64,000 nucleotides of DNA from contig CAWAIF010000003.1 in NCBI GenBank assembly GCA_963782055.1, positions 1,600,001 to 1,664,000 on the forward strand, read 5' to 3'. The translations under genes and the position numbers were made by a program. Source of the stretch: an uncultured delta proteobacterium (GTDB taxonomy: Bacteria; Myxococcota_A; Polyangia; Polyangiales; Polyangiaceae). Below the pieces are notes generated by a model. It had not been told where the DNA came from and searched no databases. It worked only from the letters and a program-made list of their open reading frames with translations. Each line of letters begins with the position of its first letter. Position 1 is the stretch's first letter. Shown here in pieces: positions 1 to 34,049 of this stretch.

Positions 1-76
1 ACACCGTCACGAGCGAGTGAGCGAGGCGCCCTTGGGGGCCGTGGTCAGCCGCGCGATGAAGTAGGATGGTCGTCCG

Positions 77-3000
77 ATGACGACAATCGCGGAAGAGGCG
101 CACGACATCGGTGCGTTGCTGCGACGCGCTGCGGTCGAGCGCGATCCGGTGCCGTCGCTCCTGCTCGCGCTGCGGTGGCGTCGTGCCGCCGGCCCCGAGG
201 ACAGGCAGGCCGTCGAGGCGCGCGTCGTCGACGCGGCGACGGCCTCGTACGAGGGACTCGCGGGCCTGGTCCGGGCCATTCACATCTACTGGCCGGAGGG
301 ACTGCTGGCGCCGCCGGTGCGTGCCTCCCTCCACGTCGCGCTGGAGGCGGGGCGGTTCGAGGCGCACGAGCTGTTCCACGTGCTCTCCCCGCTGCTCGCG
401 GCGGAGGACCGCTTCGAGGAGCTGCTCGCGCACTCGGAGAGGCTGGGGCTCGGCGCGCGGCTGCGCCTGGCGACGCTGTGCCAGCGGCTGGCGACCGCGG
501 TGCAGGTGTTCGGGCCGGAGGCCTTCGTCCCGGGCGAGCGCGAGCGCGCGTTCGACACCGTGCTCGAGCGGCTCTTCGAGGACCGCGACGCCGGCGTGGC
601 GCTGCGCGCCGCGTGGGCGGTCGGCGTCCGGGCCGCGGCGTCCAAGCCCTGGCGCGGCCGCCTCGCCGCCCTCTCGCGCGACGCTTCGCCGCGGCGCAAG
701 CGCCGGGCCCTGGCGGCGCGCACCGCGCTCTGGGTGCTCGGGGAGGACGCCTGGGACTACGAGCGGGAGCTCACGTCTGGGCTGGGCAAGACCGACCCGT
801 ACGCGCGCGCGACGGCCCTGCTCGCGATGCGGTTCGGCGTCCGCATCGCCCCGGGCACGGTGGCGGCGATGGCGGAGCAGCTCGTGTCGCGGTCCGCGCC
901 GGTGGAGGTGCTCGTCGCGGCGCTCGAGCTCGCGCGCGTGCACCCTGACGAGGCGCTCCGCACGCACGTCGCCGAGCGCGCGGAGGTCGAGCGGCCTCCG
1001 GCGGAGCTCGCGATCCTGCTCCGGCGGACCGCGCCCGGAGCGCCGGGCGGCGCGGCCGGCATCGTGGAGCTCGGCGACGCGCTCGTGGAAGCCTCCGCCG
1101 TGTCGCCTGGCGAGGCATCGCGCGCGGCGGCGGCGCTCGCGCGGCGACTCTCGCGCGGGATCAGCGGCGACGCCGAGGAGCAGGAGGCCTGCGAGCGGGT
1201 GCTCTTCGACGGGACGCTCTTTCGCGACGCGCTCGTCATCGGGGCCCGTACGCCCGCCGCCCGTCGCGAGGCGTACGAGGTGTGGGTGGGCGCGGTGGCC
1301 GCGTGCCGTGAGGCGCGCCTCGCCGCGCTGGGTGAGGGGGATGCGCGGGAGCGGACCGCGGCGTGGCGGCGCGCGGCCAGGGCGCTCGACGCGTCCCCGC
1401 GCGGCATCCGGCGGGACGGGGCGCCGGACGCGGAGGCCCGCAGCCCGGTGCGCCGGGACGCGGCGCGCGTCCGCCTCGCGAGCGCCGCGCGCCTGGCCGG
1501 CCGCGCCGACTCGATGGAGGAGCGTCCGGCGATCGGCGCCCTCCTCGTCGCCGCCGACATCGAGGCCGTGGTCGCGCCGAGCGTCTTCGGGGACGTGCTG
1601 GCGGCGCTGCTCTCGTCGCGCTCGCCGCGCGCGCTCCGCCACGCGCTCGATGGCTGCCCCGCGGGTGCGCCCCTGCACGACGCGCTCACGGCCCTGGAGG
1701 CGCTCCGCGCGCTCGCCGAGCCCCGGGGGAAGAAGGCGCCGGCCGTGGATCGCGACACGCTCGCGCAGGCGACGTGGCACCTCGCGCAGGCGTCGCTCGC
1801 GGTCACGGGGGATCGTGCCGCACCGGCCGCGGCTGCGCCGCTCGCGCTGGACGCCGCCGTGAGCCTCTCCCTGGCGCCACCGTCGTCGCCGGGCGCCGTG
1901 CTCGCCGCATGGAGCGCCGCCGCGCGTGCGTGCATCCGCCTGCGCGAGGGGGTGGCAGAGGACGCAGGCGCGCCGCCGCCGTCCTTCCCGAACGCCGCGC
2001 GCGTCGAGAAGGCAATCGTCTCGCTCTTCGAGCCTCAGTCCAGGCGCGAGCGCTCCCTCAAGGACGAGGCGGCGCTGGAGGTGCTCGCCTCCGTCGTCCC
2101 GCCCGCGCTGGCGTCGCTCCCGCACCTGCTCGGCCGGGTGCTGCGCGCGCGCAAGGCGCCGGCGGCTCGCCCGCGCCGTGACCCGTTCGCGCCGTCGAAG
2201 GTCATCGGCGACTTCGTCGTGGAGAAGAAGCTCGGCGCCGGCGGGATGGGCGCGTGCCTGCTGGTTCGCCGCCGGGCGGCGCCGCGGGGCGCCGGGTGCT
2301 TCGTGCTCAAGGTCCCCCTGAAGGGGGATGCCTTCGCCCAGTGCGCCTTCGTGGACGAGGCGCAGACCCTCATCACGCTGTCGCGCGCCCCCCACCCGGG
2401 CGTGGTGCGCTTCCTCGGCTACATGACGTGCGGCTACCGCCTGCCGTACCTGATCATGCAGCACATCGAGGGCAGGCCGCTCGACGGCGTGCTGAAGAAG
2501 GGACCGCTGCCCCTGGGTGCGGCGCTCCGCGATGGCGCGCGGCTCGCCGATGCGCTCGCGCACTGCCACGCGAGCGGTGTCACGCACCACGACGTCAAGC
2601 CCGCCAACGTCATCTCCGGTCCGGAGGGCGCGGTGCTCGTGGACTTCGGCATCGCCGGAGCCGGGAAGGACGGCGCGGGGACGCCCATGTACATGTCGCC
2701 GGAGCGCTTCGACCGCACCAATGCGCCGGAGCTCGCGCCCGCCGCCGACGTCTTCGCCCTGGGCTGCATGGTGCACGAGCTCTGGACCGGCACGCCGCTG
2801 ATGAACGTGCCCATCGGCGCGCACGAGGCGCCGGAGATCCCCTCCACCATCGTCGAGTTGAGCCGCGAGGTCGGGCGGGGCGAGGCGAGCATGATGGGCG
2901 TCCAGCTCGTCTTCGGCGTGCTCGCGCGGACGCACGCACTCCTCGTGCGGCGTCTCGCTCGCGGGCTGGATGGTGCGCCCGCCGCGCTGCGGGCGCCGCT

Positions 3001-3118
3001 CGGCACCCTCGTCGAGGCGATGGTGGCGACCGACCCGCGCACACGCCCGACCGCGGCGTTCGCGGCCGCCGAGCTCGGGCGCCTGGCGTCGGTCGTGGAG
3101 CGGGCGGTCACGGTATAG
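77..3118 (+). CDS. Large Ser/Thr protein kinase: long Ala/Arg/Leu-rich helical (HEAT/ARM-like) N-terminal region plus C-terminal Hanks kinase domain
   Basis: Kinase motifs LGAGGMG, VLKVP, HPGVVRF, HHDVKPAN (non-RD), DFGIA, GTPMYMSPE, DVFALG; TAGGAT at 62-67 lies 9 nt before the ATG. Confidence 0.85.
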   Translation: MTTIAEEAHDIGALLRRAAVERDPVPSLLLALRWRRAAGPEDRQAVEARVVDAATASYEGLAGLVRAIHIYWPEGLLAPPVRASLHVALEAGRFEAHELFHVLSPLLAAEDRFEELLAHSERLGLGARLRLATLCQRLATAVQVFGPEAFVPGERERAFDTVLERLFEDRDAGVALRAAWAVGVRAAASKPWRGRLAALSRDASPRRKRRALAARTALWVLGEDAWDYERELTSGLGKTDPYARATALLAMRFGVRIAPGTVAAMAEQLVSRSAPVEVLVAALELARVHPDEALRTHVAERAEVERPPAELAILLRRTAPGAPGGAAGIVELGDALVEASAVSPGEASRAAAALARRLSRGISGDAEEQEACERVLFDGTLFRDALVIGARTPAARREAYEVWVGAVAACREARLAALGEGDARERTAAWRRAARALDASPRGIRRDGAPDAEARSPVRRDAARVRLASAARLAGRADSMEERPAIGALLVAADIEAVVAPSVFGDVLAALLSSRSPRALRHALDGCPAGAPLHDALTALEALRALAEPRGKKAPAVDRDTLAQATWHLAQASLAVTGDRAAPAAAAPLALDAAVSLSLAPPSSPGAVLAAWSAAARACIRLREGVAEDAGAPPPSFPNAARVEKAIVSLFEPQSRRERSLKDEAALEVLASVVPPALASLPHLLGRVLRARKAPAARPRRDPFAPSKVIGDFVVEKKLGAGGMGACLLVRRRAAPRGAGCFVLKVPLKGDAFAQCAFVDEAQTLITLSRAPHPGVVRFLGYMTCGYRLPYLIMQHIEGRPLDGVLKKGPLPLGAALRDGARLADALAHCHASGVTHHDVKPANVISGPEGAVLVDFGIAGAGKDGAGTPMYMSPERFDRTNAPELAPAADVFALGCMVHELWTGTPLMNVPIGAHEAPEIPSTIVELSREVGRGEASMMGVQLVFGVLARTHALLVRRLARGLDGAPAALRAPLGTLVEAMVATDPRTRPTAAFAAAELGRLASVVERAVTV

Positions 3119-3126
3119 TGGCTCGA

Positions 3127-4362
3127 ATGGCCGTCGAGACGTCCACAGAAGAGCGGGTCGAGAGGGCGCCGGACGTGCCCGTGGCCCACGAGCGTGGCGG
3201 GCGGGCCGACCTCGCGGCGCTGCGCGACCGCCGCGCGCTCGCGATGATGCCCGTGGTGGTCTTCGGCGCGATGCTCCCGTTCGTCGCCCGCGCGACCGAG
3301 TCGCTCTGGATGGACGCTTCCCCGGTCGCGAAGGCGCGGCTCCTCGTCCGGCTCTGCGTGAGCTTCGTCCTGCTCGGCTGCTACCCGCTGGTTCTCGTCC
3401 TCGTGCGCCTCGGAGTCACCGACGTGACGGCGAGCCAGCACCGCTGGCTTCTCCGGGTGTACCCGGCTGTCACCACCCTGTGGCAGTCCCTGGTGGCGCT
3501 GGACGCGTTCGTACTGATCGCGTGGCCCCGGCTGGTCTCCATGCCGAGCTTCGCCGCCGATCTGACCATCTCCATCGCTGCGTGCGGGCTCATCCCGTTC
3601 GTGCAGCACCACATGACCTTCTTCTATGGCTTCGACGTCGGCACCCTCCTCCGCGCGCGCGCCCTGCTGGGCAAGGAGCCGAAGCTCGCGCGCGCTCCCC
3701 TGGACACGCTCGACTACAAGGTGTTGCAGCTCATCGCCAGGAGCGGCAGTGACGTGGCGAACGTGATGATCAACGACATGGGGATCGGCTTCCGCGATCT
3801 CATGCTTCGCCTGGCGAAGCTCGTGGCGCTCGGCTACCTGCACGTCGTCAAGGAGCTCCACGGCCCGCAGGTGGTCCTCTCCACGCTGGCCACCGACACG
3901 CTGGCGCTCCCGATATCGCTGTTCACGTGGGACACCGACGATCGCGAGCTGCTCGGCGAGCTCGCGAGCGCGCGGCTGTCGCTGGAGGCGCGCGAGCCGC
4001 AGAAGGTCGTGGTGGCGTGCGCGCGCTCGTGCGAGCGGCTCCTGCGCGGCGGACTGGCGACCGTCGAGCCCAGGATCACGCACGTGGGCAACAAGGAGCT
4101 CTCGAAGGCGACGCTGGGAGAGCTCGTGGGCGCCTGTCGGCAGCACAGGATCATCGGTCGCTTCGAGGACGGCATTTTCTCGGCGATCAACGAGCGCAGG
4201 AAGAAGATCCACGCGCTCGAAGGGGAGGCGCCCATCGACGACCAGGACGCCTTCGTGCTCTACACGCTGACCGAGATCGTCGCGCGTGATCTGCTCACGC
4301 GCCGGCGCGGGCGCGGGCGTCGCGCCGGCGACGACCCCGCAGCCGCGCCTCCCACTCAGTAG
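3127..4362 (+). CDS. Membrane protein: about 4 TM helices, winged-helix domain, C-terminal HEPN/DUF4145-like domain
   Basis: C-terminal part of ORF 2254..4362, restarted at ATG 3127, 8 nt after the upstream stop. Four hydrophobic segments; wHTH-like LDYKVLQLIAR...LAKLVALGYL; HEPN-like ACARSCERLLR...KATLGELV...INERRKKIH...DQDAF. Confidence 0.75.
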   Translation: MAVETSTEERVERAPDVPVAHERGGRADLAALRDRRALAMMPVVVFGAMLPFVARATESLWMDASPVAKARLLVRLCVSFVLLGCYPLVLVLVRLGVTDVTASQHRWLLRVYPAVTTLWQSLVALDAFVLIAWPRLVSMPSFAADLTISIAACGLIPFVQHHMTFFYGFDVGTLLRARALLGKEPKLARAPLDTLDYKVLQLIARSGSDVANVMINDMGIGFRDLMLRLAKLVALGYLHVVKELHGPQVVLSTLATDTLALPISLFTWDTDDRELLGELASARLSLEAREPQKVVVACARSCERLLRGGLATVEPRITHVGNKELSKATLGELVGACRQHRIIGRFEDGIFSAINERRKKIHALEGEAPIDDQDAFVLYTLTEIVARDLLTRRRGRGRRAGDDPAAAPPTQ

Positions 4363-7300
4363 CACGAGCAGAGCGGATCGCCCGGCGAGCAGCGACAGGT
4401 GGGCTTCGCCGAGACCTTCGGGAACTTCGGTCGCCGGACGGGGGGCGCGCCCGCGTCGGCGGCCGCAGCGTCGCAGGCCGTCGTGTCGCCCGCCTTGCAG
4501 AGCTGGACCAGCATCGCCTTCGCCTCGGCCGGGTCGGCGAAGGGCTGCGCGGGCTCCCCGGTGCCCGCTATGAGGCGCGCGCAGGACGTGGCATCGTGGG
4601 CCTGGCAGGCGCGCCCGAAGAAGTCCGCTGCGCGTCGCGCGTCCTTCGACACGCCGCGGCCCTCCGCGAACGTCTCGCCCGCGAGCGCGCAGCCGGTCGC
4701 GTCGTCCGCGTCGCAGGCGCGCTGGAAGAGGGAGACGGCGCGCACGGCGTCCTGCGCGACGCCGACCCCGCCGGCGTAGAGTCTGCCCAGGTTGCCGCAG
4801 GCGTGGGCGTCGCCGTCGGTGCACGCGTGATCGTACAGCTTGGCGGCGCGCGCCGGATCCTTCGGCGCTCCGCGGCCGTCCTCGACGAGCGCACCGAGCC
4901 CGCCGCAGGCGAAGGCGTGGCCGGCGTTGCACGCCGTCTCGAAGAGCTTCGCCGCGCGCGGCAGATCGTCTCCCTTCGTGGCCAGCGAGACCGCCAGCAT
5001 GCCGCACGCGGACGACGAGCCGGCGGTGCAGGCGCGGTCGTAGAGGGAGCGCGCGCGCGCGGCGTCTCGCGTCACGCCCTCGCCGGTGTCGTAGAGCACG
5101 CCGAGGTTGGCGCACCCGTTGGGGTACCCACCGTCGCACGACTGCTGGTAGAGCTTCGCCGCCCGCGCCAGGTCCTTGGGCCCACCGCGCCCCTCCTTGA
5201 GCATGATGCCGAGCGAGTCGCAGGCCTGCGCGCGGCCGGCGTCGCACGCCTGTCCGTAGCGGACGCGCGCGGCGTCGTAGTCGGTCGTCAGGCCGTGGCC
5301 CCTCTCCAGCGCCGCCCCGAGCTCGTAGCACGCCTGGGAATCTCCGCCGTCGCACGCCCGCCGGTAGAGCTCGGCGGCCCGCGCCGCGTCCTTGGGGACG
5401 CCGCTCGCCTGCGCATACATCACGCCCAGGCTGAAGCAGCTCGTCGCGTTGCCTCGGTCGCACTGCTTGGTGCAGTCGGGCGCGTCGCCGAGCGTGCACT
5501 CGTGAGGCTGGAGGGCGCGCCGGAAGCCGAAGGCCGTCGCGCCGGACCCCGCGAGCACCAGGGCGGCGCCGGCGCCGGCCAGGACCTTGTTGCGGCGCAC
5601 GGCCAGGCCCACGCGGTAGCCGAGCGTCGCGCCGCGCGCGGTGACGGGCCGTCCGGCCAGCAGCGCGTCGATGTCCTGGGCGAGCTCGCGCGCGGTGCCG
5701 TAGCGAAGCGCGCGATCCTTCTGCGTGGCCTTCTCCAGGATCTTCGCCAGGTCCACCGGCAGCGTGGGGTTCGCCTTGCGCGCGGGGAGCGGCGCGGCGT
5801 GGAGCACCTGCGTGACGAGCTGCGCCTCGGTCTCGCCGTCGAAGAAGGCGCGCCCCGTGAAGAGCTCGTAGAAGGTGGCCGCCAGCGCGTAGACGTCGGC
5901 GCGCGCGTCGAGGTCGAGCAGGCTCCGCTGGAGCTGCTCCGGGGGCATGTAGCGGAGCGTGCCGAGGAGGGAGCTCTTGTCGCGCGTGATGGATTGGGTC
6001 GCGTCGCCGATCGCCGCGAGCCCAAGGTCCATCACCACGACGCGATGGTCCGTGGCGGTCACCATCAGGTTCCCGGGCTTGAGGTCTCGGTGGAGAATCC
6101 CCGCGTCGTGCAGCGCCTGCACGGCGAGCGCGGCGTCGCGGAAGAGGCGCGTGAGCTTGCGGACGCGCTCCACGCCCGTCTCGGCGATGGGATCCGGGCG
6201 CGCGGGGGCTGCCTTCGCCGTGTCGGCGAGCGCCGCGGCCTTCACCTTCCGCACGCCGCTCGACGCGGTCGCGATCGCGGCGTCCAGGCTGTCGCTCGAC
6301 GCGAGCGCGCCGGCCACCTCCGACAGGTCGGCGCCCTCGATGAGCTCCATCGCGTAGTAGTGCGTGTCGCCGCGCTTGCCGGAGGTGAGGATCTTGACGA
6401 CGTTCGGGTGGTCGCAGCGTGACAGCGACTGGATCTCGCGCCGGAACCTCGCCACCGCGACCGGGTCGTCGGCGGTCCCGGGGGCGAGCATCTTGAGGGC
6501 GACGAGGCGGCCGAGGCTCTCCTGCCGCGCGAGGTGCACGACGCCCATCCCGCCCTCCCCGAGCTTGCCTAGCAGGGTGTAGTCGCCGAACTGGTCGTCG
6601 CGCGGCGCCTCCTCCGCGCGCGCGGTCAGCGGCGCGGCGTGCAGCAGCGCCACGACGTCCTGTTCCACGGAGGGGAACTCCTCGGCGAGGGCCTTGCCCC
6701 TCAGCGCCTCGCCGCCGACGTAGTCCAGGAAGGAGCAGCCGGAGCCTCCGCGCCCGTTGAAGTACAGCACCTGCTCGCGCAGCTCGGACTCGCGGAAGAG
6801 CAGCCATGGGTGCAGGGGGGTGAAGGTGTCCTCGCGCATCGCCCACAGCCGGCGTGGCAGGACGTCCTCGGGGAGCGGCGTGCCGCGCGGGTCGAGCACG
6901 AGGGGCGTCTCGTCGGACAGGTCGAGCAGCCTGCCCGTGCGCGTGCCGTCGGGCCCGACCTCCACGGAGTCGACGAACACGACCTTCGTGCCAGGCGCGA
7001 GGAAGAGGCCCTCGTGCCACGCGGCGTCCAGGCCCGCCACGAGCGTGGTCGCCGCGTCGTCGTAGAACGCGGCTCCGCGCGTGGAGCCGTGACCGAGGAC
7101 CTGGTTCCGGTACGCGGGCACGCCGTCAAGCAGTCGGCGCGGCGTGACCGAACGGCTGCCGTCCGGCTTGCCCTTGACGACCTCGGAGAAGAGCGAGCTC
7201 ACGGCCAGGACGGCCGGGTCGTCGAGCCGCGCGTCGCGGGTGTCGATCGCGCGCACGAAGTGGCCGATGGACGGCATGGCGAGGGTGCCCGCGTCCGCGG

Positions 7301-7451
7301 GAGGCCGGGCCGCCACCGTCAGGCGAATGGACGCCTCCCACGCGTAGTACGCGGTGTCATGGCGCTCCTTGGGCGACTTCGCGTTGTGCGCGCGACGCCG
7401 GAGCGCGGCCACGGGCAGCGGCAAGGCGGACCGGGATACGACGCGGGGCAT
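4356..7451 (-). CDS. Receptor-type Ser/Thr kinase: N-terminal HEPN-like domain, kinase, TM helix, Sel1-like repeats, Cys-rich tail
   Basis: YRNQVLGHG; LGEGGMGVV, VALKML, HRDLKPGN, DLGLA, GTLRYMPPE; TM VLAGAGAALVLAGSGATAFGF; repeats of the form C..LG..Y..G.GV..D..RA..LY.RAC; ends CRCSPGDPLCSCY. Confidence 0.9.
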   Translation of the reverse strand: MPRVVSRSALPLPVAALRRRAHNAKSPKERHDTAYYAWEASIRLTVAARPPADAGTLAMPSIGHFVRAIDTRDARLDDPAVLAVSSLFSEVVKGKPDGSRSVTPRRLLDGVPAYRNQVLGHGSTRGAAFYDDAATTLVAGLDAAWHEGLFLAPGTKVVFVDSVEVGPDGTRTGRLLDLSDETPLVLDPRGTPLPEDVLPRRLWAMREDTFTPLHPWLLFRESELREQVLYFNGRGGSGCSFLDYVGGEALRGKALAEEFPSVEQDVVALLHAAPLTARAEEAPRDDQFGDYTLLGKLGEGGMGVVHLARQESLGRLVALKMLAPGTADDPVAVARFRREIQSLSRCDHPNVVKILTSGKRGDTHYYAMELIEGADLSEVAGALASSDSLDAAIATASSGVRKVKAAALADTAKAAPARPDPIAETGVERVRKLTRLFRDAALAVQALHDAGILHRDLKPGNLMVTATDHRVVVMDLGLAAIGDATQSITRDKSSLLGTLRYMPPEQLQRSLLDLDARADVYALAATFYELFTGRAFFDGETEAQLVTQVLHAAPLPARKANPTLPVDLAKILEKATQKDRALRYGTARELAQDIDALLAGRPVTARGATLGYRVGLAVRRNKVLAGAGAALVLAGSGATAFGFRRALQPHECTLGDAPDCTKQCDRGNATSCFSLGVMYAQASGVPKDAARAAELYRRACDGGDSQACYELGAALERGHGLTTDYDAARVRYGQACDAGRAQACDSLGIMLKEGRGGPKDLARAAKLYQQSCDGGYPNGCANLGVLYDTGEGVTRDAARARSLYDRACTAGSSSACGMLAVSLATKGDDLPRAAKLFETACNAGHAFACGGLGALVEDGRGAPKDPARAAKLYDHACTDGDAHACGNLGRLYAGGVGVAQDAVRAVSLFQRACDADDATGCALAGETFAEGRGVSKDARRAADFFGRACQAHDATSCARLIAGTGEPAQPFADPAEAKAMLVQLCKAGDTTACDAAAADAGAPPVRRPKFPKVSAKPTCRCSPGDPLCSCY

Positions 7452-7515
7452 GGTGAGCCGGAGTGTACACCGAGGTCGTGGTCGGTGGCTCCACGGCCCG
7501 GCCCCCGCGCGCCCC

Positions 7516-10269
7516 TCAAGGACAGTCGCAGAGGGGATCGCGTCGCGGGTCGCAGTCGCAGTCGCCGCGCCTCGCGCGCCGGTCCTCGATCGGCTCGACG
7601 GGCGCCTCGCCGGGCGGCTCGAGGATGTCGGGCGCCCGAGACGGCGCGCGGGAGAGGCCGGTCTCGGTGAATCGCTCGGCGCAGAGGGCGAAGGGGAGAT
7701 CCATGGCGCCCACGCGGCATACGAGGCCGTCGGCGACGTCGCCGTGCAGCTCGACGTGCCCCGCGGCGTCGAAGGCTACGCTGCCGCCGGGGACCGGCGC
7801 GACGGCGAAGCGGCGGGCCGCCGACGTGACGTCGAGCACCTGCAGCGCGTCCCCTCCGGTCACCGCGACGCTGCCATCCGCGGACAGCGCGACCGACGTG
7901 GCGTGCAGATCGTCGAACGCCGCCACGGCCTTGCCCTTGCGCAGGTCGCGCACGTCCAGCCAGTTGTGCTGCGCGATCGCCACGACCTCGCCGTCGGCGG
8001 AGGTGGCCAGGGGCCCGCACCCGTCCATCTGGCGGATGGAGAAGGCGTCGGCGTCGCGCTTCTCCTCTGCGTCCGGGGGCTCCAGCCGGAAGCGCTGCGT
8101 CACTCCGTCGCCGTTCCGGCGCTGTTTCGGCCGCGCCAGGAGCGCGGGCACGACGCGCATCGGGGAGGCGCCGGTGCGGATCCCCTCCGCCTGGGAGACG
8201 ACCACCGTCCCGTCGGCGAGGAACGCGGCGTGCGCCGCGAACTCGTCGTAGGGGAGCTTACCCACCCGCGCGCCCGTGGAGGTGTCGAAGACGCCGAGCC
8301 ACGACGGGCTGTGGCTCACGGTGAGCATCACCCGCGCCCCGTCCCGCGAGAGCAGCGGCGCGTGCCGCTCGAAGCCGTCGCCGAACCTGGAGTGCTCCTT
8401 CGGGAGCACCACGTGGGCGAGCTCGCGGCCGGAGGCGAGGTCGAAGGTCCCCAGCTCCTCGCCGTCCATCCACGCCACCACCTTGTGGCCACCGGCGCTG
8501 ACGGCGATGGGGCCGCGCGCCGCCTTCACGTCGAATCGCGCGATCTCCTGCGCGTCGTCCGACGCGAAGGTGCGCATGGTGCCGTCCTCCAGCAGGGCGA
8601 CCACCCTCTTCCCGTCGGGGGTCATCACCGCATCGAGCGTCGCCGGCCCGGGCGCGATCCGCAGCGGCGCGCGGGATCCGTCGGTGGTGACGACCATCAC
8701 GTCCGAGGCGCCGGCGGTCGTAGACCAGCGCCAGGGTGGTGCGCCGACGAGGGCGATCGCCACCCGCCCGTCGCCGGACAGCCGCACGTCCGAGGCCGGC
8801 TTGCGCTCCGCGGTCGAGCGCTCCTCGCCCGTCGCGAGATCACCCACGCGCAGCTGGCCGTCGTCATCGACCCAGGCGACCCGGGCCGCCCGCGGGTCAA
8901 GCAGGAAGCGGTCGTGTCGCGCGAGGTGAAGTGTGACCTTCCCCGAGGGGAGGGCGACGAAGCGTCGCTCCTCCGCGTGCTTTCCCGCCCGCGCCAGCAT
9001 CGACAGATAGGCGTGTCCGATCAGCTCGACGTTCGAGAACCGCCCCTCGCCGAGGTCGAGGGTCACGTCGCCGGTCCTGGTGTCGATGACGAGCACGTGG
9101 TAAGCGCGCTCCTGCCCGACGACGACGACCGCGAGCGAGCCGTCATCGGAGACCACCGCGTCGACGCAGTAGCGGCCGGCCACCTTCCGCCGTCGCTCGT
9201 GGTCGTCGCGGAGGATGTGCAGCACGTGGTCGGGCGTCAGCCGCATGGAGACCTTGCCGTCCGCGGTGGTCGCCTGGCACAACGGCTCCGCCTCCCGTCG
9301 GCTGCGGTGATGGCGCGTTCCGACGCCCCCGCCGCTCTGCAGCAGGGCCAGCGCGCCCGAGGTTCCGGACTCCCGTCCGGCCGCTGGAGCGTTCTTCGGC
9401 GCGGTCGCGCTGGGTCGGAGCGACCACGTCTCCGGCCCGGCGCCCACATCGAACTGAAGCGCGTCGCCGCCCGGTGAGAACGTCACGCCAGATATCCGCG
9501 AGGCGACCACCAGACGCCGCAGCTCGCGGCCGTCGGTCAGGTCCCAGAGTCGGACGGTCCCGTCTGCGGAGCCGGAGGCGATGCGCCGCCCGTCCGGCGA
9601 GAAGGCGACGTCGGAGACGTAGGCCGTGTGACCGCGCAGGCGGAGCCTCTCCTGCATCGAGGTGGCGTCGACGACGGCGATCGCGTCATCCGCCTCCACC
9701 GCGAGCAGTGAGCCGTCGGGCGACCACGCGAGGATCTCACCGTACCGCTCGGCGCGGACGGTCACCTCCGCGCGCGCGTGCGCGGCCCGCTCGTAGGCGG
9801 TGAGCGTCCGGTCGAGCAAGCGCTGCGCCTCCGCCGCGTCGCCCGCCGCATGCGCCCTGGCGGCGAGCTCGAGCAGGACGGAGGGGGCCTCCGTCCCGCG
9901 CCCCGTGGCGACGAGGTCGCGCGCCCGCTTCGCGGCGGCCTGCGCGGCAGCCGCCGCCGTCCGCTCCGCGTCGATGGCGTCTGCGAGGCTCGTCGCCGCC
10001 TCGCGTCGCCCCACCTCGGCGAGGGTGGAGACCTGAAGGTCCTCCATCGCCCGCGCGTGTGACGGGCAGGCGCGCTCGTCGGCGGCGATCACGCGCAGCG
10101 CGCGGTCGAGGCGGCCCCGCGCGAGCAACGCCTGCACGCGAGGCCGGGGCGGAGCGACGCGGGCGCATGGGTCCGGCGCGCGCGCTGCCGTCTTTGGCGG
10201 GACCGCCCGAGGCGTCGACGCGCACGCCGCCACCACCCACAAGCCCGTCGCGAGCGCGAGACGTCGCAC
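7516..10269 (-). CDS. WD40/beta-propeller lipoprotein with N-terminal TPR-like helices
   Basis: Lipobox VAAC; WD40 repeat [31 protein letters not shown]; ends [14 protein letters not shown]. Start set to GTG 10269, which avoids overlap with the divergent gene and has TATCTT 8 nt upstream. Confidence 0.8.
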
Positions 10270-10315
10270 GATCCGCGAAGATACCACGTTCACCGCTCTC
10301 CGCTCCGCGGCTACC

Positions 10316-13132
10316 ATGCGTAGCGTGCGGCTTCTTCCCTGCGTGCTCGGCTTGGTGCTCGCTCTCGGCTGCGGGGGCACGCCGCGGGCGCGCACGCCGC
10401 ATGCGCCCGCGGCGCACGTGGGACGTCCGCCGGAGCAGTTCATCCAGAGCACCCACTGGGGCGACGTCACCACGCTGGCCTTCTCCCCCGACGGCGCCTA
10501 CCTCGCCTCCGCGGCCGAGGACCGGACGCTGCGTGTCTGGGACGTGCCCCGCCGCCGCGAGCTGCGCATCTTCCCCGTTGACGGCGAGGTCACCTCGCTC
10601 TCCTGGGACGGTCACGCGCGGCTCATGGTGGGACGAGAGCACGAACGCGCTGTGCTCCTGGACGTGCAGAAGGGCACCGAGATCGCCGAGCTGGGTGCGA
10701 TCGCGCGCACGGGCCCGTTCCGCGTCCCGGGCAACCCCGCCCGCTGGCTCGCCTGGGCGGACCGCGGTAGTCACTTCGACGAGGGGCTCGCGACGTTCGA
10801 CGACGACGGCAACCGCGTCGCCAACCTGGAATCGCTGCAGGCCGTGGGGGATGCCCCCATCGCCTTCACCCCCGACGCCTCGGCGGCCAGCGTCGCCCCC
10901 CCCTTCATCGACACGAAACCCGTCCTGCTTCACCGGGTGGGCGCCAGCTTCGTGCCGGTGGACGTGAAGCTTCCCGCAGCGCCGCCCGACTCGCGCTGGA
11001 CGGCCCTCGTCCCCGCTCCAGGCGCCGCCGCCGCCGCACTCCTGGGCGAGTCGGGCCCGTCGTACCTCGTCGGCGCGCGCGCGCCGCGGCCTCTGCCCAC
11101 ACCGGCGGATCACGTGGTCCGAACCGCCGTCTTCTCCCCATCGGCAGACGCGCTCGCCGTCGTCCTCGCCGACAAGACGTCGTGGTTCTATCCCGGCGCC
11201 GGGTCGCTGGCGGTGGTGGACGTCGCGACCGACGCGCTGCGCTTCGCCGAGGCGCCCGGCGGCACGACCGTCCTCGCCTTCTCCCCCGATGGTCGCACCA
11301 TCGCCGCCGGGGACGTCCTCGGCCGCATCACCCTCTTCGACGCGCGCACCGGGCGGCACCTCGGTGCGTTCGGCCAGCGCATCGTCGGCGGTGGGTGGCT
11401 CCACTTCGAGGGCAACGAGCTGGTGGTGGAGTCGTGTCGCGGGGTGACGCGGTGGTCGCTCGTCACCGGCGCGCTGCTCCGCCGGCGCGCCATCAAGTGT
11501 GACGAGAAGCGCATCCGGAGCCTGGACCGCGCGCACGCCGCCGGCCTGACGCGCGTCGTCACCGCCCCGGACGGCACGACCTACGCCGGCGACGAGGACG
11601 GCAACCTCCTGGTGACGCGCGGCGGGCGCACGATCGCGCGCGGGAAGAGCGACGGGCTCGCCATCGAGCAGCTCGTGCTCGACCCGAAGGCCGGACGCCT
11701 CGCCTCGGTGAGCAGCGACCAGATCGTGCGCATCTGGGACGCGAAGACGGCGGCGGTGCGCGCCCTCTTCATCGCCTTCGATGACGACGAGTGGATGGCC
11801 ACCACCCCGCGCGGGGCCTACTTCGGCACGCGGGAGGTGGACGATCGCGTGGGCTGGGTCTACGAGGACCCCCTCGACCTCTACTCCTTCGCGCAGTTCA
11901 AGGGGGAGTTCGAGTCCCCGGACCAGGTGCGGCGCAGGTTGGCCGGCGAGGACGTGGAGGCGCCGACGTACGTGCCGCGCCCGCCGAGCGTCAAGCTCGT
12001 CTCCGCGCCCACCACCCCGGTGCGCTCGGTCGCGGCGACGGTGCGCGTGGCGGTCGGGTCGGAGAGCCGGGTCGCCGCGGTGCGCGCCTTCGTCGAGGCA
12101 CGGCTGGTCGCCGAGGTCCATCCCTCGCCGGGCGCGCGCACCGTCGACCTCGCCGTCCCGCTGCGGAGCGGCACCAACCACGTCAGCGTCGTCGCCTTCG
12201 ACGATCAGGGCATCGCCTCCAACGAGCTGCCCCTGGAGATCCAGAGTCTGGCGCCGCCGGGCGCGCGCCCGGACGTGTGGGTCGTCGCCATCGGCGTCAG
12301 CGCGTACCCACACCTGCTCGACCTGGTGCGGCTCCCGCCGGCGAGGCGCGCCCGGGAGCTGGCCGACCTGCAGCTGCACGCGGCCCGTCGCGACGCCGAG
12401 GCGATCGCCGGCGCGATGGGGGCGATGGCCGGCCCGGGCAAGGCCTACGCGCGCGCACACGTGGTGCTCCTGCCCGACGCGCGGGCGGATGGCGACTCCA
12501 TCCGCCGCGCCCTCGGCGGGCTCGCCGCCATGCGCCCGTCCGACCTCGGCGTGATCTTCTTCGCCGGCCACGGCCTGGAGTCCAGGCACGGCGACATGGT
12601 GCTCGTCACCGGTGGCGCGCAGCTCGCCGCGGACGGCAAGGGCCTCACGCCGGAGTCGCTCGCCGGCGCGACCGTGGGCTGGCAGGAGCTGGCGGACGCG
12701 CTCTCCCGTGCGAAGGGGCGAGTGCTCGTGTTGCTGGACGCGTGCCACTCCGGCCACTTCAACCAGGATCTGGTGCCGCCCAACGGCGTGCTGGCGGACC
12801 GGCTGGTGCGCGACGGCCGTGCCGGTGCCATCGTCTTCGCCGCCGCGAAGGGCCGCCAGTCCTCCTACGAGGGCGACGTCCGCCGGGACGCGCGCGCCGG
12901 CGCGGCAGCTGGGCGCGCGCCACGCGCCATGCACGGCCTGTTCACGTCCGCGATCCTCGACGCGCTGGCCGACGCCTCCACCGACCGCAACCACGACGGG
13001 ACGCTGCAGGCCTCCGAGCTCATCGACGCGACGACCGACCGCGTCTCGCAGGCGTCCGGCGGGAAGCAGACGCCGTGGGTCGTGCGGCGAGAGGAGTTCG
13101 GCGACTTCGCGTTGAAGCGCGTCGCGCGGTGA
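10316..13132 (+). CDS. WD40-repeat caspase-family (peptidase C14) lipoprotein
   Basis: Lipobox LALGC; WD40 [30 protein letters not shown]; Ig-like segment; catalytic dyad motifs FFAGHG and [13 protein letters not shown]. Start could instead be GTG 10325. Confidence 0.9.
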
Positions 13133-13141
13133 GCGCGCGCG

Positions 13142-13435
13142 TCAGTTGGTGAGGCGGATCCCGCGCTTGCGCAGGCACTGATCGTTGACGTTCTCGTAGC
13201 CCTCCGGGCACTGGCCCTGCGCGTCGGGCTCGGGCGGCGGCCCGGCGTCCTCCTCGGGGGCCGGGGTCGCCACCGCGGTGTCGCTCGGCTCGGGCGTGGC
13301 GGAGGGCGTCGGGCTCACCGCGTGGGTACCGGCGTCGCCGGCGCACGCAACGACCGCGAGCGCGGGCAGGAGGAAGGAAACGGCGAGCCAGGATTCCACA
13401 GTCCGGAGTATCGGCGGCCTCCGCGTCTCCAGCAA
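13142..13435 (-). CDS. Small putative lipoprotein (Pro/Thr-rich linker, C-terminal CPEGY...C)
   Basis: Fills the gap directly after the STAND gene; hydrophobic stretch followed by VVAC; start codon uncertain. Confidence 0.5.
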   Translation of the reverse strand: MLETRRPPILRTVESWLAVSFLLPALAVVACAGDAGTHAVSPTPSATPEPSDTAVATPAPEEDAGPPPEPDAQGQCPEGYENVNDQCLRKRGIRLTN

Positions 13436-13438
13436 GAC

Positions 13439-16400
13439 TCACGCGGACGCCGTCGTGCCGTCACCGCCACGCGCGAGGTCCTGCAGCTCGGGCGTCTCGA
13501 CGCCGGGGCGCCTGCCGAGGAGCTCCAGCGCGCCGCGAGCGACTGCGCGGCCCTGGTCCATCTGGCCTGCCGCTCGCAGGCGGCGCGCCGCGAGCACCAG
13601 GGCCGCGATGGGCAGCTCCAGCAGCTCCGGTCTCGGCTGGATGCCCAGCACCTCGGCCTGAAGCTCGACCGCGATCGCCGCCGTGCCGGCGGTGTCGCCC
13701 GCCTCCGCCGCGTCCACGAGGGCCAGCGCGCGGAGCTGCGCCGCGCGGAGCGGGTCGGGCGTGGCGCCGGCGCGCTCGGCCAGGAGCCGCTCGGCCTCTT
13801 CGTCTCGCCGGCCGCGGGCCACCGCCCGCGCGGCCTTCAGCCACGCGCACGACGCGGCGACCTCGTCGTTGTGGCTGCGCGTGGCGAGCTCGTCCGCGCG
13901 CGCCAGGACCCTGTCCACGTCTTCGCGGCGGAGCAGCGCCCGCACGTGGGCCAGCGTGAGGAGGGTGTTCGCCTGCTCGCCGAAGAGCGTGAGCGAAGCG
14001 TCGACCTCGGCCGCCCGGACCAGCGCCGCCTCGGCTTCCTCCAGGTGTCCTGCCTCCAGCTCGTAGGAGCCGACGTTGCCGAGGGCGATCGCCACCAGCC
14101 GCGGGTCCTCGATGCGCTCGCCCAGGGCGAGCTGCCTCCTCGCGTGGGCCACCGCCGCGTCCAGACGCCCGCGCTCGCGCTCCGCCACGCCGAGGTTGCC
14201 GAGCGCAGCGGCCAACGTGCGCGTCAGGCCGGCGCGCGTCGCGATGTCCAGCGCCTCCTTCCACAGCGCCAGCGGCGTCTCCAGGTCTCCAAGCCGCCAC
14301 GCCGAGGTGCCGGCGGTGATGCGCGTGGTGGCCCGCGCGGCGTCGTCCCCGCTCTCGTCCGCCCACGCCACCGCGCGCTGCGCCAGCGCCATGGCGCCCG
14401 CCCCGTCCCGCGACTGCGACGCGATGGCCTGCTGGCGGCGCGCCTCCGCGGCGTCCGCCAGCGCCCCGGCCTCGTGGAGCTTCTCGCTGGCGTCGGCGAG
14501 CAGCGTGCCCGCCTCCTCCGCGCCGCCACGCAGCGCGAGGATCTCCGCGCGCCGCACCCCCGCGCGCAGCGCCAGCACCCGCTCCCCCGCCGCGGTCGCC
14601 CCCTCGCTCGCGGCGGAGAGCAGCGTGAGCGCGTCGTCGAGCAGGCCGCGCTGCTGCGCGAGCAGGGCCATCCGGAAGCTTGCCTCCGCCACGAGGAGGC
14701 TCGCGCCCAAATGCCCTGCGATGGTGCGCGCCGCGGCGACGACCGTCTGCGCGGCGGCGACCTCCCCCGTGGCGAAGAGGCCGTCGAACGCCGCGAGCAG
14801 CGCCCGGGTCCCGTTCGCCGCGGGCCGCCGCGTCAGCTCCTCCAGCACCGCGCCCGTCGAGGCGTCCTGGGTGCGCGTCATCTGCTCCAGGAGGGCGCGC
14901 GCGATCTCCACCACGATCGCCGCGGCCGGCCCGGAGCCGGCGCGGGCCAGCGACTCGGCGGTGAGCGACGCGCGCCCCGCCCGCGCCGCGCGCAAGAGGA
15001 GCGTGACCAGCGCGCCCTGGAGTGCCTCGAACCGCGTCGCCCTCCGCGCGAGGCCGAGCACACCCACCGGGTCGCGGCAGGACGCCTCGTGGTGATCGGC
15101 GAGGAGGTACTCGAGCAGGCGAGGGGACTGAAACCGCACCAGCGTCCGCTCGCCGTCCCAGATCTCCACCAGCGCGCCCAGGTCCAGCAGCTGCGCGTAC
15201 GCGCTGTCGCGCTCCACGTTGCGCAGCGCGCGGCGCAGCGCCGGCACGTCGTACAGGTCGTCTCTCGCCACCGCGTCGGTGCCCGCGGCGTCGAGCTCGC
15301 CCGCGACCGAGCGCAGCAGGGCCCCGCGCTCGTAGAAGGGACCGGTCGGGTCGCCCTCGGCGACGACCACGTGAGCAAAGTACATCCGCATCGCGTCGTC
15401 GCTGGAGAGGTCGCGCGGCACGGCGCGCCCGCGGTACGTCGCCGCGAGCAGCCGCAGCATCAGCGGGTTGCGCATGAGCGCCGCCGTGGAGCCGCCGCGC
15501 AGCTCGTCGAAGGGCGTGAGCGGGCGGAAGGCACGCGTCTCGCCATCCTCCGTCTCCGCGCGGTGCTCGCGGTAGCGCGCGTACAGCTCCGCCACCTCGT
15601 CCGACTCCAGCTCCCCGATGGGGACGTAAGGCACCCGTCGCATCTGCGCGCCGGCGCGCTGCTCGGTGGCGAAGTAGCGCGTCCCCTCCAGCCGCCCGAA
15701 CCGCGACTCCGCGGGCAGGCGCTCCCACGTGCCGGCCCCCATCGTGGCGATCACGCGCACCCAGGGGTAGTCGCTCACCTGCCGCACCAGGGCGTCGAGC
15801 GACCCGACGAGTGCGCCCAGGTCCCCGGTGTGCTCGTTCAGCCCGTCGACGAGGACCCAGAGGCGCCGCCCCGCCCGAGCGAAGGCGCGGCTCGCCCCGC
15901 CGAGGAAGTCCTCGAAGAAGGTGTCGCGGAGGCCGAGGTCGCGCAGCACGCGCGACTGCAGGTCCGCGCCGGGGAGCGCGGCGGCGCGATAGAGCAGCAC
16001 GACGTCGCCCTGCTGCGCGCGGCGCAGGGCGTGCTCGGCGAGGAGGGTCGTCTTGCCACTCCCGCTCGCCCCCGCGAAGACCAGCGCCCGGCAGTCAGAG
16101 GCGTCGAGCTCGCCCACCGGTCGTGTGACGGCGCGGGGCAGGACGACGACGCCGGGCAGGTAGCGACCGGACGCGACGAGCTCGCTCATCGCCGGCCCGG
16201 TCACGCGGCTCGCCGCCTCGCGCAATGCGTCCACGCTCAGGTCGCCGAGGCGCAGCAGCCTGGCGTCGGTGGCCTTCTGCGCGAGCAGCGCGCGCCAAGC
16301 CGCCGCGCGCCCCTGCCGCTCCACGTGCGCGCCCTGGGTGCCGGCGTAGATGAGCGTGGAGCGCGTGTTGCCCTCGAAGAGCAGCACGTCGTCGCCGCCC

Positions 16401-17236
16401 TCGCCCCTGTCGAAGAGCGGGTCGAGCGCGAGCGAGCGTCCGTCCTCCGCCACGAAGGCGAGCACCTCCGCCCCGCCGAGCGTGTAGCGCGCGAGGAAGC
16501 GCGCCTCCTCCAGGACCTCCTCGAGCACCGGCGTGTAGAGGGCGAGCAGCTCCCGCGCGCGCGCGACCGCCAGGTCCGAGCCGTGCGCCAGCCCGTTACG
16601 GAGCTTGATGAGCGCCTGGATCTTGCCCAGCTTGCTGGTGCGGGTGCGCGCCTGCCCGCGCTCGTCCTCGTAGGGTGTCTCGGCGAGGAACCAGCTCCGG
16701 CAGCGCAGCTCCAGGTGATCGTAGGCCGCGGGCAGCTCGCGGAAGAAGGGCTCCACGCCCGCGTCGCGGAACGCGGCGAGCGCTCGCACCGAGAAGAGGT
16801 GCCAGACGCTGATGAGGGGGCGCTGGAAGTCTCGCGAGAGCAGCTCGTTGAGCTGCGCGTCGCGCAGGGGCGAGCGCAGGTACTGGCTGGCGAGCGTGAG
16901 CGCCCAGACCTTGAGCACCCGCGTGAAGGTGTCGACCAGGAGGCGGCAGCGCTGGCGGGGATCCTGCTCCACCGCGAAGCGCCGGTAGGTATCGGCGATG
17001 GGCGCCGGCATGCCGCGCACCAGATCGGGTGTGGCCTCGACGCGCGGTGGCTCCGGCGTGGTCACGACCCCGGCCGCCACCGCGACGCCCTCGGCGAAGG
17101 TGACCGGGCCCCCGGGCCGCAGCACCCGCGGCTCTCCCCGCGCGGGGACCAGGACCACCTCGCCGGTCAGCTCGTCGAGCACCAGGAGCCCGTCTTCCGA
17201 CGGGAACGCGGTGTAGCGCTTCAGGGGCGAGGGCAT
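13439..17236 (-). CDS. STAND/NACHT-like NTPase with N-terminal HEPN-like domain and C-terminal TPR repeats
   Basis: LIKLRNGLAHG; Walker A GASGSGKTT; Walker B LWVLVDGLNE; RNPLMLRLL (GxP-like); TPRs AAALGNLGVAERERG and AIALGNVGSYELEAG; start MPSPLKRY. Confidence 0.85.
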   Translation of the reverse strand: MPSPLKRYTAFPSEDGLLVLDELTGEVVLVPARGEPRVLRPGGPVTFAEGVAVAAGVVTTPEPPRVEATPDLVRGMPAPIADTYRRFAVEQDPRQRCRLLVDTFTRVLKVWALTLASQYLRSPLRDAQLNELLSRDFQRPLISVWHLFSVRALAAFRDAGVEPFFRELPAAYDHLELRCRSWFLAETPYEDERGQARTRTSKLGKIQALIKLRNGLAHGSDLAVARARELLALYTPVLEEVLEEARFLARYTLGGAEVLAFVAEDGRSLALDPLFDRGEGGDDVLLFEGNTRSTLIYAGTQGAHVERQGRAAAWRALLAQKATDARLLRLGDLSVDALREAASRVTGPAMSELVASGRYLPGVVVLPRAVTRPVGELDASDCRALVFAGASGSGKTTLLAEHALRRAQQGDVVLLYRAAALPGADLQSRVLRDLGLRDTFFEDFLGGASRAFARAGRRLWVLVDGLNEHTGDLGALVGSLDALVRQVSDYPWVRVIATMGAGTWERLPAESRFGRLEGTRYFATEQRAGAQMRRVPYVPIGELESDEVAELYARYREHRAETEDGETRAFRPLTPFDELRGGSTAALMRNPLMLRLLAATYRGRAVPRDLSSDDAMRMYFAHVVVAEGDPTGPFYERGALLRSVAGELDAAGTDAVARDDLYDVPALRRALRNVERDSAYAQLLDLGALVEIWDGERTLVRFQSPRLLEYLLADHHEASCRDPVGVLGLARRATRFEALQGALVTLLLRAARAGRASLTAESLARAGSGPAAAIVVEIARALLEQMTRTQDASTGAVLEELTRRPAANGTRALLAAFDGLFATGEVAAAQTVVAAARTIAGHLGASLLVAEASFRMALLAQQRGLLDDALTLLSAASEGATAAGERVLALRAGVRRAEILALRGGAEEAGTLLADASEKLHEAGALADAAEARRQQAIASQSRDGAGAMALAQRAVAWADESGDDAARATTRITAGTSAWRLGDLETPLALWKEALDIATRAGLTRTLAAALGNLGVAERERGRLDAAVAHARRQLALGERIEDPRLVAIALGNVGSYELEAGHLEEAEAALVRAAEVDASLTLFGEQANTLLTLAHVRALLRREDVDRVLARADELATRSHNDEVAASCAWLKAARAVARGRRDEEAERLLAERAGATPDPLRAAQLRALALVDAAEAGDTAGTAAIAVELQAEVLGIQPRPELLELPIAALVLAARRLRAAGQMDQGRAVARGALELLGRRPGVETPELQDLARGGDGTTASA

Positions 17237-17261
17237 CACCCCGCAGCTTATCCCGCCTCCC

Positions 17262-19180: not shown

Positions 19181-19235
19181 CGAAGGCCGTCGGACGCGCT
19201 CGGCGGGCGGCGTATTCATCTGCTAAGCATGCGGC

Positions 19236-20276: not shown

Positions 20277-20279
20277 GCG

Positions 20280-21827: not shown

Positions 21828-21991
21828 GCGTCCTCCGCTCGCGCTTATACCCCGGGGCGGTACGTCGCGACCAGGCTTCGGCGCCGTCCGGCAGGTTCTC
21901 CCCCGGACCGCGCGGCGAAGGCGATGCGCGCCCCGCGTAGCGCTTGCAGTCGGCCCCCGCGCGATCGCGCCCGGCCCACCGCCTTTCCGCT

Positions 21992-22007
21992 TGGCACCGA
22001 CGATGCA
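21992..22007 (+). promoter_or_regulatory. Putative sigma54 (-24/-12) promoter
   Basis: TGGCACCGACGATGCA = GG-N10-GC, 26 nt upstream of ATG 22034. Confidence 0.6.
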
Positions 22008-22033
22008 ACGGACATGTCGCACGAGGTCATCCC

Positions 22034-22516: not shown

Positions 22517-22568
22517 AGTCCGGCCGCGGCGTTGGCCACGCGCCGGGCCGGCGGCTATCCTGCCGCGC

Positions 22569-23975: not shown

Positions 23976-23985
23976 CGCCCGCCCG

Positions 23986-26621: not shown

Positions 26622-26672
26622 GACAGACCGGAGATATATCGTCGCGGACCCGGCCCGCCAAGGAGCCATGGA

Positions 26673-26698
26673 TCGAGGGCTCGGGCGGCTGCCCTCGA
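26673..26698. terminator. GC-rich hairpin downstream of the GH1 gene
   Basis: TCGAGGGC-N10-GCCCTCGA inverted repeat; no U-tract. Confidence 0.3.
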
Positions 26699-26704
26699 GC
26701 GGGC

Positions 26705-28264: not shown

Positions 28265-28299
28265 CACTGTGCAATCTACCTCAACGCGCTGCCCTTCGT

Positions 28300-28350: not shown

Positions 28351-28355
28351 CCAGA

Positions 28356-30840: not shown

Positions 30841-30859
30841 GCGCGGGCCGCGGCGGCCG

Positions 30860-34040: not shown

Positions 34041-34049
34041 GGGCGCCCT

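Follow-up and report, generated by a model that had tools for sequence, protein, structure and literature searches.

A predicted bacterial membrane receptor that joins a kinase to a HEPN-like, putative RNase domain

Can a single bacterial protein couple sensing across the membrane to RNA cleavage in the manner of IRE1? The question is raised by an ORF on the minus strand of the window, the 64,000-nucleotide stretch analysed here, for which the original prediction had proposed an IRE1/RNase L-like logic: a HEPN-like RNase domain, a kinase, a transmembrane (TM) segment and an extracytoplasmic Sel1 sensor whose ligand would dimerize the receptor. The ORF has an ATG start and no internal stops, and the RNase motif, kinase, TM and Cys-containing Sel1 repeats of that prediction were all located within it. 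We predict that it encodes a membrane protein with a sensor outside and a kinase and putative RNase domain inside, arranged as follows.

4356..7451, minus strand: coding sequence, 1031 aa, comprising HEPN-like domain, OB-like barrel, Ser/Thr kinase, TM and Sel1-like repeats
6993..7430, minus strand: HEPN-like helical domain, aa 8-153 (helices 14-23, 27-48, 104-120 and 127-146; insert helices 54-93)
7359..7361, minus strand: H31, a second near-invariant His (H in 103/104 motif-blind relatives)
7323..7337, minus strand: E39-x3-R43, the HEPN Ex3[KR] motif, in helix 2 (E in 101/104 and R/K in 103/104 motif-blind relatives)
7089..7109, minus strand: predicted RNase motif R115-N116-x4-H121 (R-x5-H), where helix 104-120 ends (DSSP)
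6639..6992, minus strand: OB-like beta-barrel (aa 154-250) and the helices that close it, to aa 271
5658..6587, minus strand: Hanks-type Ser/Thr kinase, PknB/StkP-like, ~aa 289-598 (Pfam Pkinase, E 1.7e-36)
5529..5585, minus strand: single TM helix predicted by hydropathy only, aa 623-641, with RRNK just before it
4557..5489, minus strand: ~8 Cys-rich Sel1-like repeats, predicted extracytoplasmic (Pfam Sel1, E 1.4e-35, 7 stretches)
4359..4397, minus strand: CxCxPxDPLCxC, C-terminal motif
16259..17023, minus strand: distant second module copy (RNGLAH), without part of the barrel, N-terminal in a STAND NTPase-TPR ORF (13439-17353)

The N-terminal ~275 aa, originally read as one HEPN-like domain, does contain such a helical domain but consists of two, the second being the OB-like barrel. 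The structure model of this module has a pLDDT of 95.6 and a pTM of 0.93 (single-sequence folding, at pLDDT 35, was unusable). In a VIA structure search (48,161 chains; 50 matches listed), 25 matches covered the helical part and 15 of these were HEPN. Three more, Roquin (twice) and SO_3166, we take to be HEPN as well. The 15 were classed by entry title or Table 1 of PMC3710099. Judged solely by aligned ranges, the match ends 35 residues after H121 and 34 after H107 of 7ae2. Language-model leads, obtained independently of VIA, pointed to RNase LS and Csm6 HEPN clusters (scores 0.76-0.79). The Foldseek comparison proposed with the original prediction returned no match, HEPN or KEN, against PDB and viral models at E<=0.001; searching PDB sequences with the module or with profiles built from it yielded none at E<=10, and aa 1-275 had none in Pfam, NCBIfam or PADLOC. 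The Pfam profile HEPN_Swt1 (PF18731) matched neither the genome nor aa 1-275, and hhalign revealed no link to it (probability 0.9%, the alignment being confined to the RN helix). HEPN families are poorly conserved outside their motifs (PMC3710099).

Those motifs are R-x4-6-H, with a polar residue after the Arg, and an upstream Ex3[KR] (PMC3710099, section 6). Here RNQVLGH spans R115 to H121 (window 7109-7089), exactly where it had been claimed, N116 supplies the polar residue and E39-x3-R43 lies upstream; the model shows the HEPN topology of two alpha-hairpins, in which an insert separates helices 2 and 3 and the motif follows helix 3. Conservation, without which the original prediction would have fallen, is high: among 104 motif-blind relatives R115 is kept in 103, N116 in 97 and H121 in 99, and R-x4-6-H occurs in 100 of them and in 143/147 non-redundant modules. 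Indeed R115, H31, E39, H121, N116 and R125 are six among the 12 most conserved of 255 alignment columns. It should be emphasized that R-x5-H by itself is not beyond chance, as 275-aa background windows of neighbouring proteins contained R-x4-6-H in 156/221 cases (RN-x3-5-H in 7/221); it is meaningful because it is conserved and placed as expected within the fold. The helical domain very probably has a HEPN-type fold, and it is likely to be an active RNase. The barrel is a possible RNA-binding partner. Homodimer prediction for aa 1-275 scored 0.17 (tool mark 0.42), which counts neither for nor against a dimer.

The kinase is intact as claimed (~6590-5660) and looks active, with G-loop G298, K320, E339, H454-R455-D456, N461, D475 and E505 present and DLG replacing DFG. 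Among solved structures it is closest to PknB and StkP (E 5e-40 to 1e-37), and the best 60 of 610 matches include no IRE1 kinase. It carries a family-specific insert (~aa 378-432) and the DLG and GTLRY motifs, found in 69/104 and 76/104 module-fused kinases, respectively, versus 1/136 and 0/136 other kinases of this genome. The K, D, N and D residues are all intact in 102/104 complete fused kinases. Together with the R-x4-6-H counts, this suggests that the two predicted activities have been preserved jointly. Compared with the same 136 kinases by FastTree, 99 of the 104 fall in one clade of their own (support 0.94), which marks the fusion as old. With respect to the PknB back-to-back interface, L33 corresponds to L313 and is kept in 89/104 relatives, whereas D76 corresponds to T356 and is Asp in just 14/104; one of the two residues tied to that dimer is mostly lost in the family.

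The single TM predicted at ~5590-5520 was borne out at aa 623-641 (5585-5529) by hydropathy only; this is the top 19-residue window of the protein, yet a weak one (Kyte-Doolittle mean 1.69). A hydropathy segment of at least 1.6 stands at the equivalent position in 96/98 evaluable relatives, and net positive charge is larger on its N side in 82/96. Beyond it the Sel1-like repeats were confirmed: eight repeat starts are Cys-led, and the C-terminal 386 aa hold 26 Cys versus 2 in the N-terminal 610. From the TM position and Cys content we infer that the repeats are extracytoplasmic, the kinase and HEPN-like domain being predicted on the cytoplasmic side of the one TM, an assignment made by hydropathy only.

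The full architecture, Sel1 included, recurs in four relatives (P0005, P0232, P0233 and P0241; module identity 55-61%). Across the family the module measures 260-310 aa, the linker varies and Sel1, WD40, TPR or FGE sensors are swapped, so that the Sel1 sensor of the original prediction, present here, is one among several interchangeable types. The kinase, likewise, is dispensable in some relatives: 10/22 evaluable kinase-less proteins run from module directly to TM, and these direct module-TM-sensor proteins retain R-x4-6-H. In keeping with the behaviour of an effector, other partners are STAND NTPases, TIR, ParA-like and FHA domains; P0105 has four tandem module copies, and one module is N-terminal to a DUF499 ATPase, a slot that the available text of PMC12839542 describes for a HEPN RNase. 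Within the 7.58-Mb genome the sole other match is the copy at 16259..17023 (E 0.024; hhalign against the module, probability 96%, E 3.1e-9, 242 columns), which only a wider profile detected, BLAST and narrow profiles having missed it; a whole-protein profile (A3) matched every kinase and was useless for distribution. No conserved operon or defence island was found in 83 loci and the window's initial 30 kb, nor antitoxin-like or defence neighbours around module loci (genes from a purpose-written caller; of 293 near neighbours, 202 after dereplication, 146 were run through PADLOC). Two queries found no module on plasmids, and none of six pattern matches on viral contigs was confirmed. The convergent gene 3142-4362 was tested as HEPN and gained no support.

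How far, then, does the likeness to IRE1 extend? The KEN domain of IRE1/RNase L belongs to the HEPN superfamily (PMC3710099), and IRE1 runs sensor-TM-kinase-KEN in the available text of PMC4536996. Shared with that description are a cross-membrane sensor, a single TM, a kinase beside the membrane and a HEPN-type RNase (here predicted) farthest out. In contrast, the chain direction is reversed, with the HEPN-like domain N-terminal and attached to the kinase N-lobe rather than the C-lobe, the kinase followed by TM and Sel1, and no KEN C-terminal to it; the kinase is PknB-type, and an OB-like barrel, variable linker and Sel1/WD40/TPR/FGE sensors are added. No KEN profile appears among Pfam matches at E<=1, and no KEN entry among the 50 VIA matches listed. 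The reading as a receptor kinase-ribonuclease is partly supported: the layout, predicted topology, near-invariant motif and intact-looking kinase agree with it, but the HEPN-like domain is probably no KEN domain and the kinase is not of IRE1 type.

Closer in context are the kinase-TM-WD40/TPR/FGE receptors of Planctomycetota and myxobacteria, which in the accessible portion of PMC11032199 share the cytoplasmic kinase, one TM, periplasmic repeats and the three commonest sensor types; the module family differs by its added HEPN-OB module, and the words 'RNase' and 'nuclease' do not occur in the main text available. STAND/NACHT and DUF499 HEPN effectors (Swt1-like, Anantharaman 2013) share the N-terminal effector slot, as in module relatives on STAND-TPR and DUF499 proteins. 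STAND+TPR+S1 and TM fusions are recorded for the Swt1-like group, in which the OB domains follow the STAND module toward the C-terminus (PMC3710099), whereas the barrel here directly follows the HEPN-like domain; published description and the Pfam profile set the module apart, with overlap possible. Table 1 of PMC3710099 holds no bacterial HEPN-kinase fusion and gives a HEPN-kinase receptor for eukaryotes only. HEPN toxins and defence RNases (HepT/SO_3166, RnlA/LsoA, Csm6 and DARNA) are the nearest solved folds with the same motif set and, unlike a receptor, are controlled by antitoxin, cyclic oligonucleotides or ssDNA in the descriptions available. To our knowledge HepT, RnlA/LsoA, Csm6 and DARNA are soluble, none being a membrane receptor or kinase-fused.

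The domain order, intact kinase, R-x5-H/ExxxR/H31 set and HEPN-like fold adjoining a barrel make it, on balance, probable that the protein is a receptor that spans the membrane once and has two outputs in the cytoplasm, its predicted RNase being switched by receptor clustering. On binding a ligand in the envelope or from outside, the Sel1 repeats would cluster the receptor, and this step, aided or gated by kinase autophosphorylation, would pair two HEPN-like domains into a composite metal-independent RNase site. HEPN active sites typically arise at dimer interfaces, according to the text available of 10.64898/2026.02.22.705581. The barrel may present single-stranded RNA (tRNA or mRNA) to that site, and cleavage, as part of a response to stress or conflict, could slow translation or lead to dormancy or death. 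A mobile HEPN-OB effector would have been grafted onto the kinase-TM-repeat receptor common in myxobacteria and planctomycetes, becoming IRE1-like by convergence. More tentatively, hundreds of proteins in these groups may form a family of transmembrane receptor ribonucleases, with swappable sensors of extracytoplasmic signals feeding a HEPN-OB RNase and a dedicated kinase clade, kinase-free and STAND-linked versions, and IRE1 logic invented independently.

It could be argued instead that HEPN-OB is a constitutive, auto-inhibited RNase dimer, opened by phosphorylation or a cytoplasmic cue rather than by ligand-driven dimerization, with the sensor acting through the kinase only. DARNA, in the portion available of 10.64898/2026.02.22.705581, is an oligomer assembled in advance whose active site is blocked, and the nearly always intact kinases with their family-specific DLG, GTLRY and insert, the FHA domains of some members and the remodelled D76 equivalent fit such control; the motif is, however, retained in kinase-less module-TM-sensor proteins, so at least these are switched without a kinase in cis, and we consider this reading unlikely. 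Regulation of a kinase by an RNA-binding input is the logic of PKR. Were the module such an RNA-binding or dimerizing input, phosphorylation would be the output and RNA cleavage absent or minor, which would suit the adjoining barrel, the lack of antitoxin-like or defence neighbours at the examined loci, the few members that lost the His while retaining the kinase loop, and the existence of non-catalytic HEPN domains (PMC3710099). Such non-catalytic families, however, lack the charged residues (PMC3710099), whereas conservation of R, N, H and E is 93-99% here, and kinase-free versions of the module occupy effector slots; this makes the proposal quite improbable. That the bundle is merely of a common shape, with other chemistry and a coincidental R-x5-H, is very improbable, given that HEPN accounts for 15-18 of the 25 helical VIA matches (50 listed; 48,161 chains), that both motifs sit on the expected helices, that the language-model leads agree, and that on a DUF499 ATPase the module takes a place known for HEPN.

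The HEPN RNases of the bacterial systems compared are, in the descriptions available, switched from inside the cell. If active, the clustering-switched receptors favoured here would link envelope sensing directly to bacterial RNA cleavage, the IRE1 design would have arisen twice, and there would be a concrete output for part of the large, unexplained expansions of receptor kinases in myxobacteria and planctomycetes. The unannotated 270-aa module is a new annotation profile in itself.

At the other end of the protein, the CxCxPxDPLCxC motif is found also at the end of the upstream gene, and terminates three ORFs across the genome.

The open reading frame running from 7451 to 4356 on the minus strand is uninterrupted and encodes 1,031 aa, and its start at 7451 agrees with the relatives, in which family conservation sets in at L10-P11-L12-P13. 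The host genome (7.58 Mb, ~72% GC) contains 156 kinase ORFs. The original prediction located the domains and motif of this protein correctly. RNQVLGH (R115-N116 to H121) lies at 7109-7089, as claimed; the protein kinase domain (Pfam match, E 1.7e-36), described as intact, has all its catalytic residues; and the Sel1 repeats (Pfam E 1.4e-35, seven stretches) are Cys-containing, with 26 Cys in the C-terminal 386 aa versus 2 in the first 610. The single TM proposed corresponds to a predicted segment at aa 623-641, the top hydrophobicity window of the protein, yet weak (1.69). Residues 1-275, which include a HEPN-like domain (aa 8-153) and an OB-like barrel (aa 154-250), together termed the HEPN-OB module, gave no Pfam match at E<=1 and likewise none to NCBIfam and PADLOC profiles.

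The motif by itself is weak evidence: of 221 background windows, 156 contain an R-x4-6-H. A homologue search over 1.84 billion representatives yielded 615 matches at E<=0.001, of which the best 150 were used; after locus-derived members had been added, 70% dereplication and exclusion of fragments left 147 near-complete modules from 198. Because the metagenome loci had been chosen by the motif itself, conservation was counted separately in the 104 rows of the motif-blind search. These retain R115 (103/104), N116 (97/104), H121 (99/104), E39 (101/104), R/K43 (103/104), H31 (103/104) and R125 (96/104). The original prediction was to fall if the motif proved unconserved; R-x4-6-H is present in 100 of the 104 motif-blind relatives, and in 77/77 additional relatives from a search seeded with motif-bearing sequences. 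At the sequence level the conserved residues agree with both HEPN signatures as defined in section 6 of PMC3710099. H31 is a residue beyond these two signatures; some HEPN families have alternative N-terminal histidines, according to the same section.

A kinase follows the module in 118 of the 147 cases. K, D, N and D are retained in 102/104 complete fused kinases, and a hydrophobic segment lies <=90 aa past the kinase in 96 of 98 evaluable complete-kinase relatives. C-terminal parts, typed by Pfam in 43 of the best matches among the best five families per protein, comprised WD40 (11), TPR (11), FGE-sulfatase (6), Sel1 (1), a phosphonate-binding domain (1) and DUF4384 (1), with 12 unrecognised; more Sel1-bearing relatives occur beyond the 43 scanned. 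Seven of the 29 modules without a kinase stop within 60 aa, while 10 of the other 22 have a TM-like segment and then a tail, with the motif in 10/10. Other fusion partners are TIR, FHA, DUF4145, an AAA/STAND domain, a ParA-like domain and DUF499. The DUF499 ATPase P0246 carries the module N-terminally (hhalign 98.7%), the position described for a HEPN RNase in PMC12839542. Proteins with module, TPR and zinc ribbon form a large group labelled Chloroflexota; in the loci encoding a double zinc ribbon version (L077-L083) a related TPR gene lies immediately upstream in 6/7, L080 being cut, and that of L083 has a STAND-like N-terminal part, as judged by eye. Matches with a source name are labelled Myxococcales, Planctomycetota and Chloroflexota, the nearest of them being Myxococcales, which points to a myxobacterial host. 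In another relative, P0149, the module is joined to a further HEPN domain of DUF4145 type. P0105 contains four modules in tandem, two of them without the His. In the ESM Atlas, Actinomycetota and Bacteroidota clusters 256-300 aa long score 0.94-0.95 against the module and may be stand-alone versions of it.

In a tree that included 136 other complete kinases, from this genome only, 99/104 fused kinases fell in one clade (support 0.94). The fused kinases are distinguished from the others of this genome by DLG (69/104 versus 1/136), GTLRY (76/104 versus 0/136) and a longer domain (median 311 versus 275 aa). Module and kinase sequence distances are correlated (Mantel r 0.69, 0/500 permutations), which shows shared descent, not co-evolution.

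In IRE1, as described in PMC4536996, a lumenal sensor is connected through one TM to a cytoplasmic kinase-RNase, and activation proceeds via back-to-back dimers. The studied protein has the same domain order counted outward from the membrane. Unlike IRE1, however, its chain runs in the opposite direction, and the HEPN-like domain is therefore attached to the kinase N-lobe. In the PknB dimer, whose ligand-induced activation is debated, the N-lobe backs are in contact (PMC13434768), and a dimer of this type would juxtapose N-terminal appendages. By analogy, this geometry would fit the dimerisation originally proposed. Two observations speak against a simple copy of the PknB model, however: the D76-equivalent is mostly lost (D in 14/104 family kinases versus 93/136 other kinases), and linker length differs widely across the family (40 to 161 aa). 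The L33-equivalent is retained in 89/104. The interpretation as an IRE1/RNase L-like receptor kinase-ribonuclease with reversed domain order stands in part: the protein's layout resembles that of IRE1, and its logic probably does too, but it does not belong to the IRE1/RNase L family.

Clustering alone could be the switch, as the kinase-free TM versions suggest, and we lean towards the module being a predicted RNase activated by clustering. Such an enzyme would cleave tRNA or mRNA, followed by arrest, if it acts like other HEPN effectors (10.64898/2026.02.22.705581). It could be argued that the module is instead a pre-formed dimer gated by phosphorylation; we consider this unlikely. A non-catalytic input domain is a distinctly doubtful reading of a module in which the motif is so widely kept. 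It is very improbable that the fold of the helical domain is not HEPN. No description of a bacterial HEPN-kinase-TM receptor was found in the literature searched, which lay largely outside subscription journals, and neither the combination of HEPN, kinase and TM nor the HEPN-OB module was found in the available portions of PMC3710099, PMC12839542, PMC11032199, PMC4536996, PMC13434768, PMC8195603, PMC11090510, PMC7159879, 10.64898/2026.10.19.760177, 10.1101/2022.07.19.500537 and 10.64898/2026.02.22.705581. From these same portions, the kinase-TM-repeat chassis (PMC11032199) and HEPN effectors at the N-terminus of STAND or DUF499 proteins (PMC12839542, 10.1101/2022.07.19.500537, PMC3710099) are already known, and the kinase-HEPN fusions listed in PMC3710099 are eukaryotic KEN only. 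The module may overlap with the Swt1-like group of that paper.

The module was found in 1/40 relatives and 0/6 congeners (84-98% complete) by single-protein search, and in 3/400 other genomes of the phylum by profile search (four candidates scored per genome). Against five congeners, window positions 1-20,000 gave only short kinase- or repeat-type matches (best E 1.8e-15) and no long DNA match among the matches listed, whereas 20,001-40,000 and 44,001-64,000 gave kilobase matches (72-82%) in both congeners tested; the gene therefore lies in a variable region. Positions 1-20,000 encode many kinases, STAND proteins and repeat proteins. Across 83 loci no conserved partner gene was found except kinases and TPR proteins, and PADLOC matches at E<=1e-15 covered 15/146 neighbours, 14 of them generic and one DrmC; the context thus lends a defence role no support. 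Such a role is compatible with the patchy occurrence of the module, the variability of its sensors and its conflict-type fusions. Nine members lie on contigs sharing one assembly prefix (L017, L022, L027, L039, L051, L056, L061, L065, L070) and L013 holds two in tandem, so local expansions are possible. L036, L037 and L044 have an upstream block in common (ABC transporter, cNMP-binding, GAF and S8 peptidase genes).

Other genes of the window are as follows.

77-3118 (+): second kinase, C-terminal to a long Ala-rich region without a Pfam match
3142-4362 (+): convergent gene with membrane segments, and with RRKKIH in a helical domain at the C-terminus
10316-13132 (+): WD40 and caspase-like (Peptidase_C14) protein, N-terminus lipoprotein-like
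13439-17353 (-): STAND NTPase-TPR protein that carries a distant module copy (RNGLAH)

The module copy of the STAND-TPR protein, ~9.5 kb from the studied gene, is the only other one found in the 7.58-Mb genome; its barrel is partly missing and its alignment has no H31 or E39 equivalent. The C-terminal domain of the convergent gene appears DUF4145-like by eye only, and the gene had no match to Pfam or P0149 and no homologue in 150 phylum genomes. A relative of the WD40-Peptidase_C14 protein occurs close to the module gene in L070. Both the studied gene (4359-4397) and its upstream WD40 neighbour (about 7519-7560), each on the minus strand, end in CxCxPxDPLCxC, a motif that closes only 3 ORFs of the whole genome.
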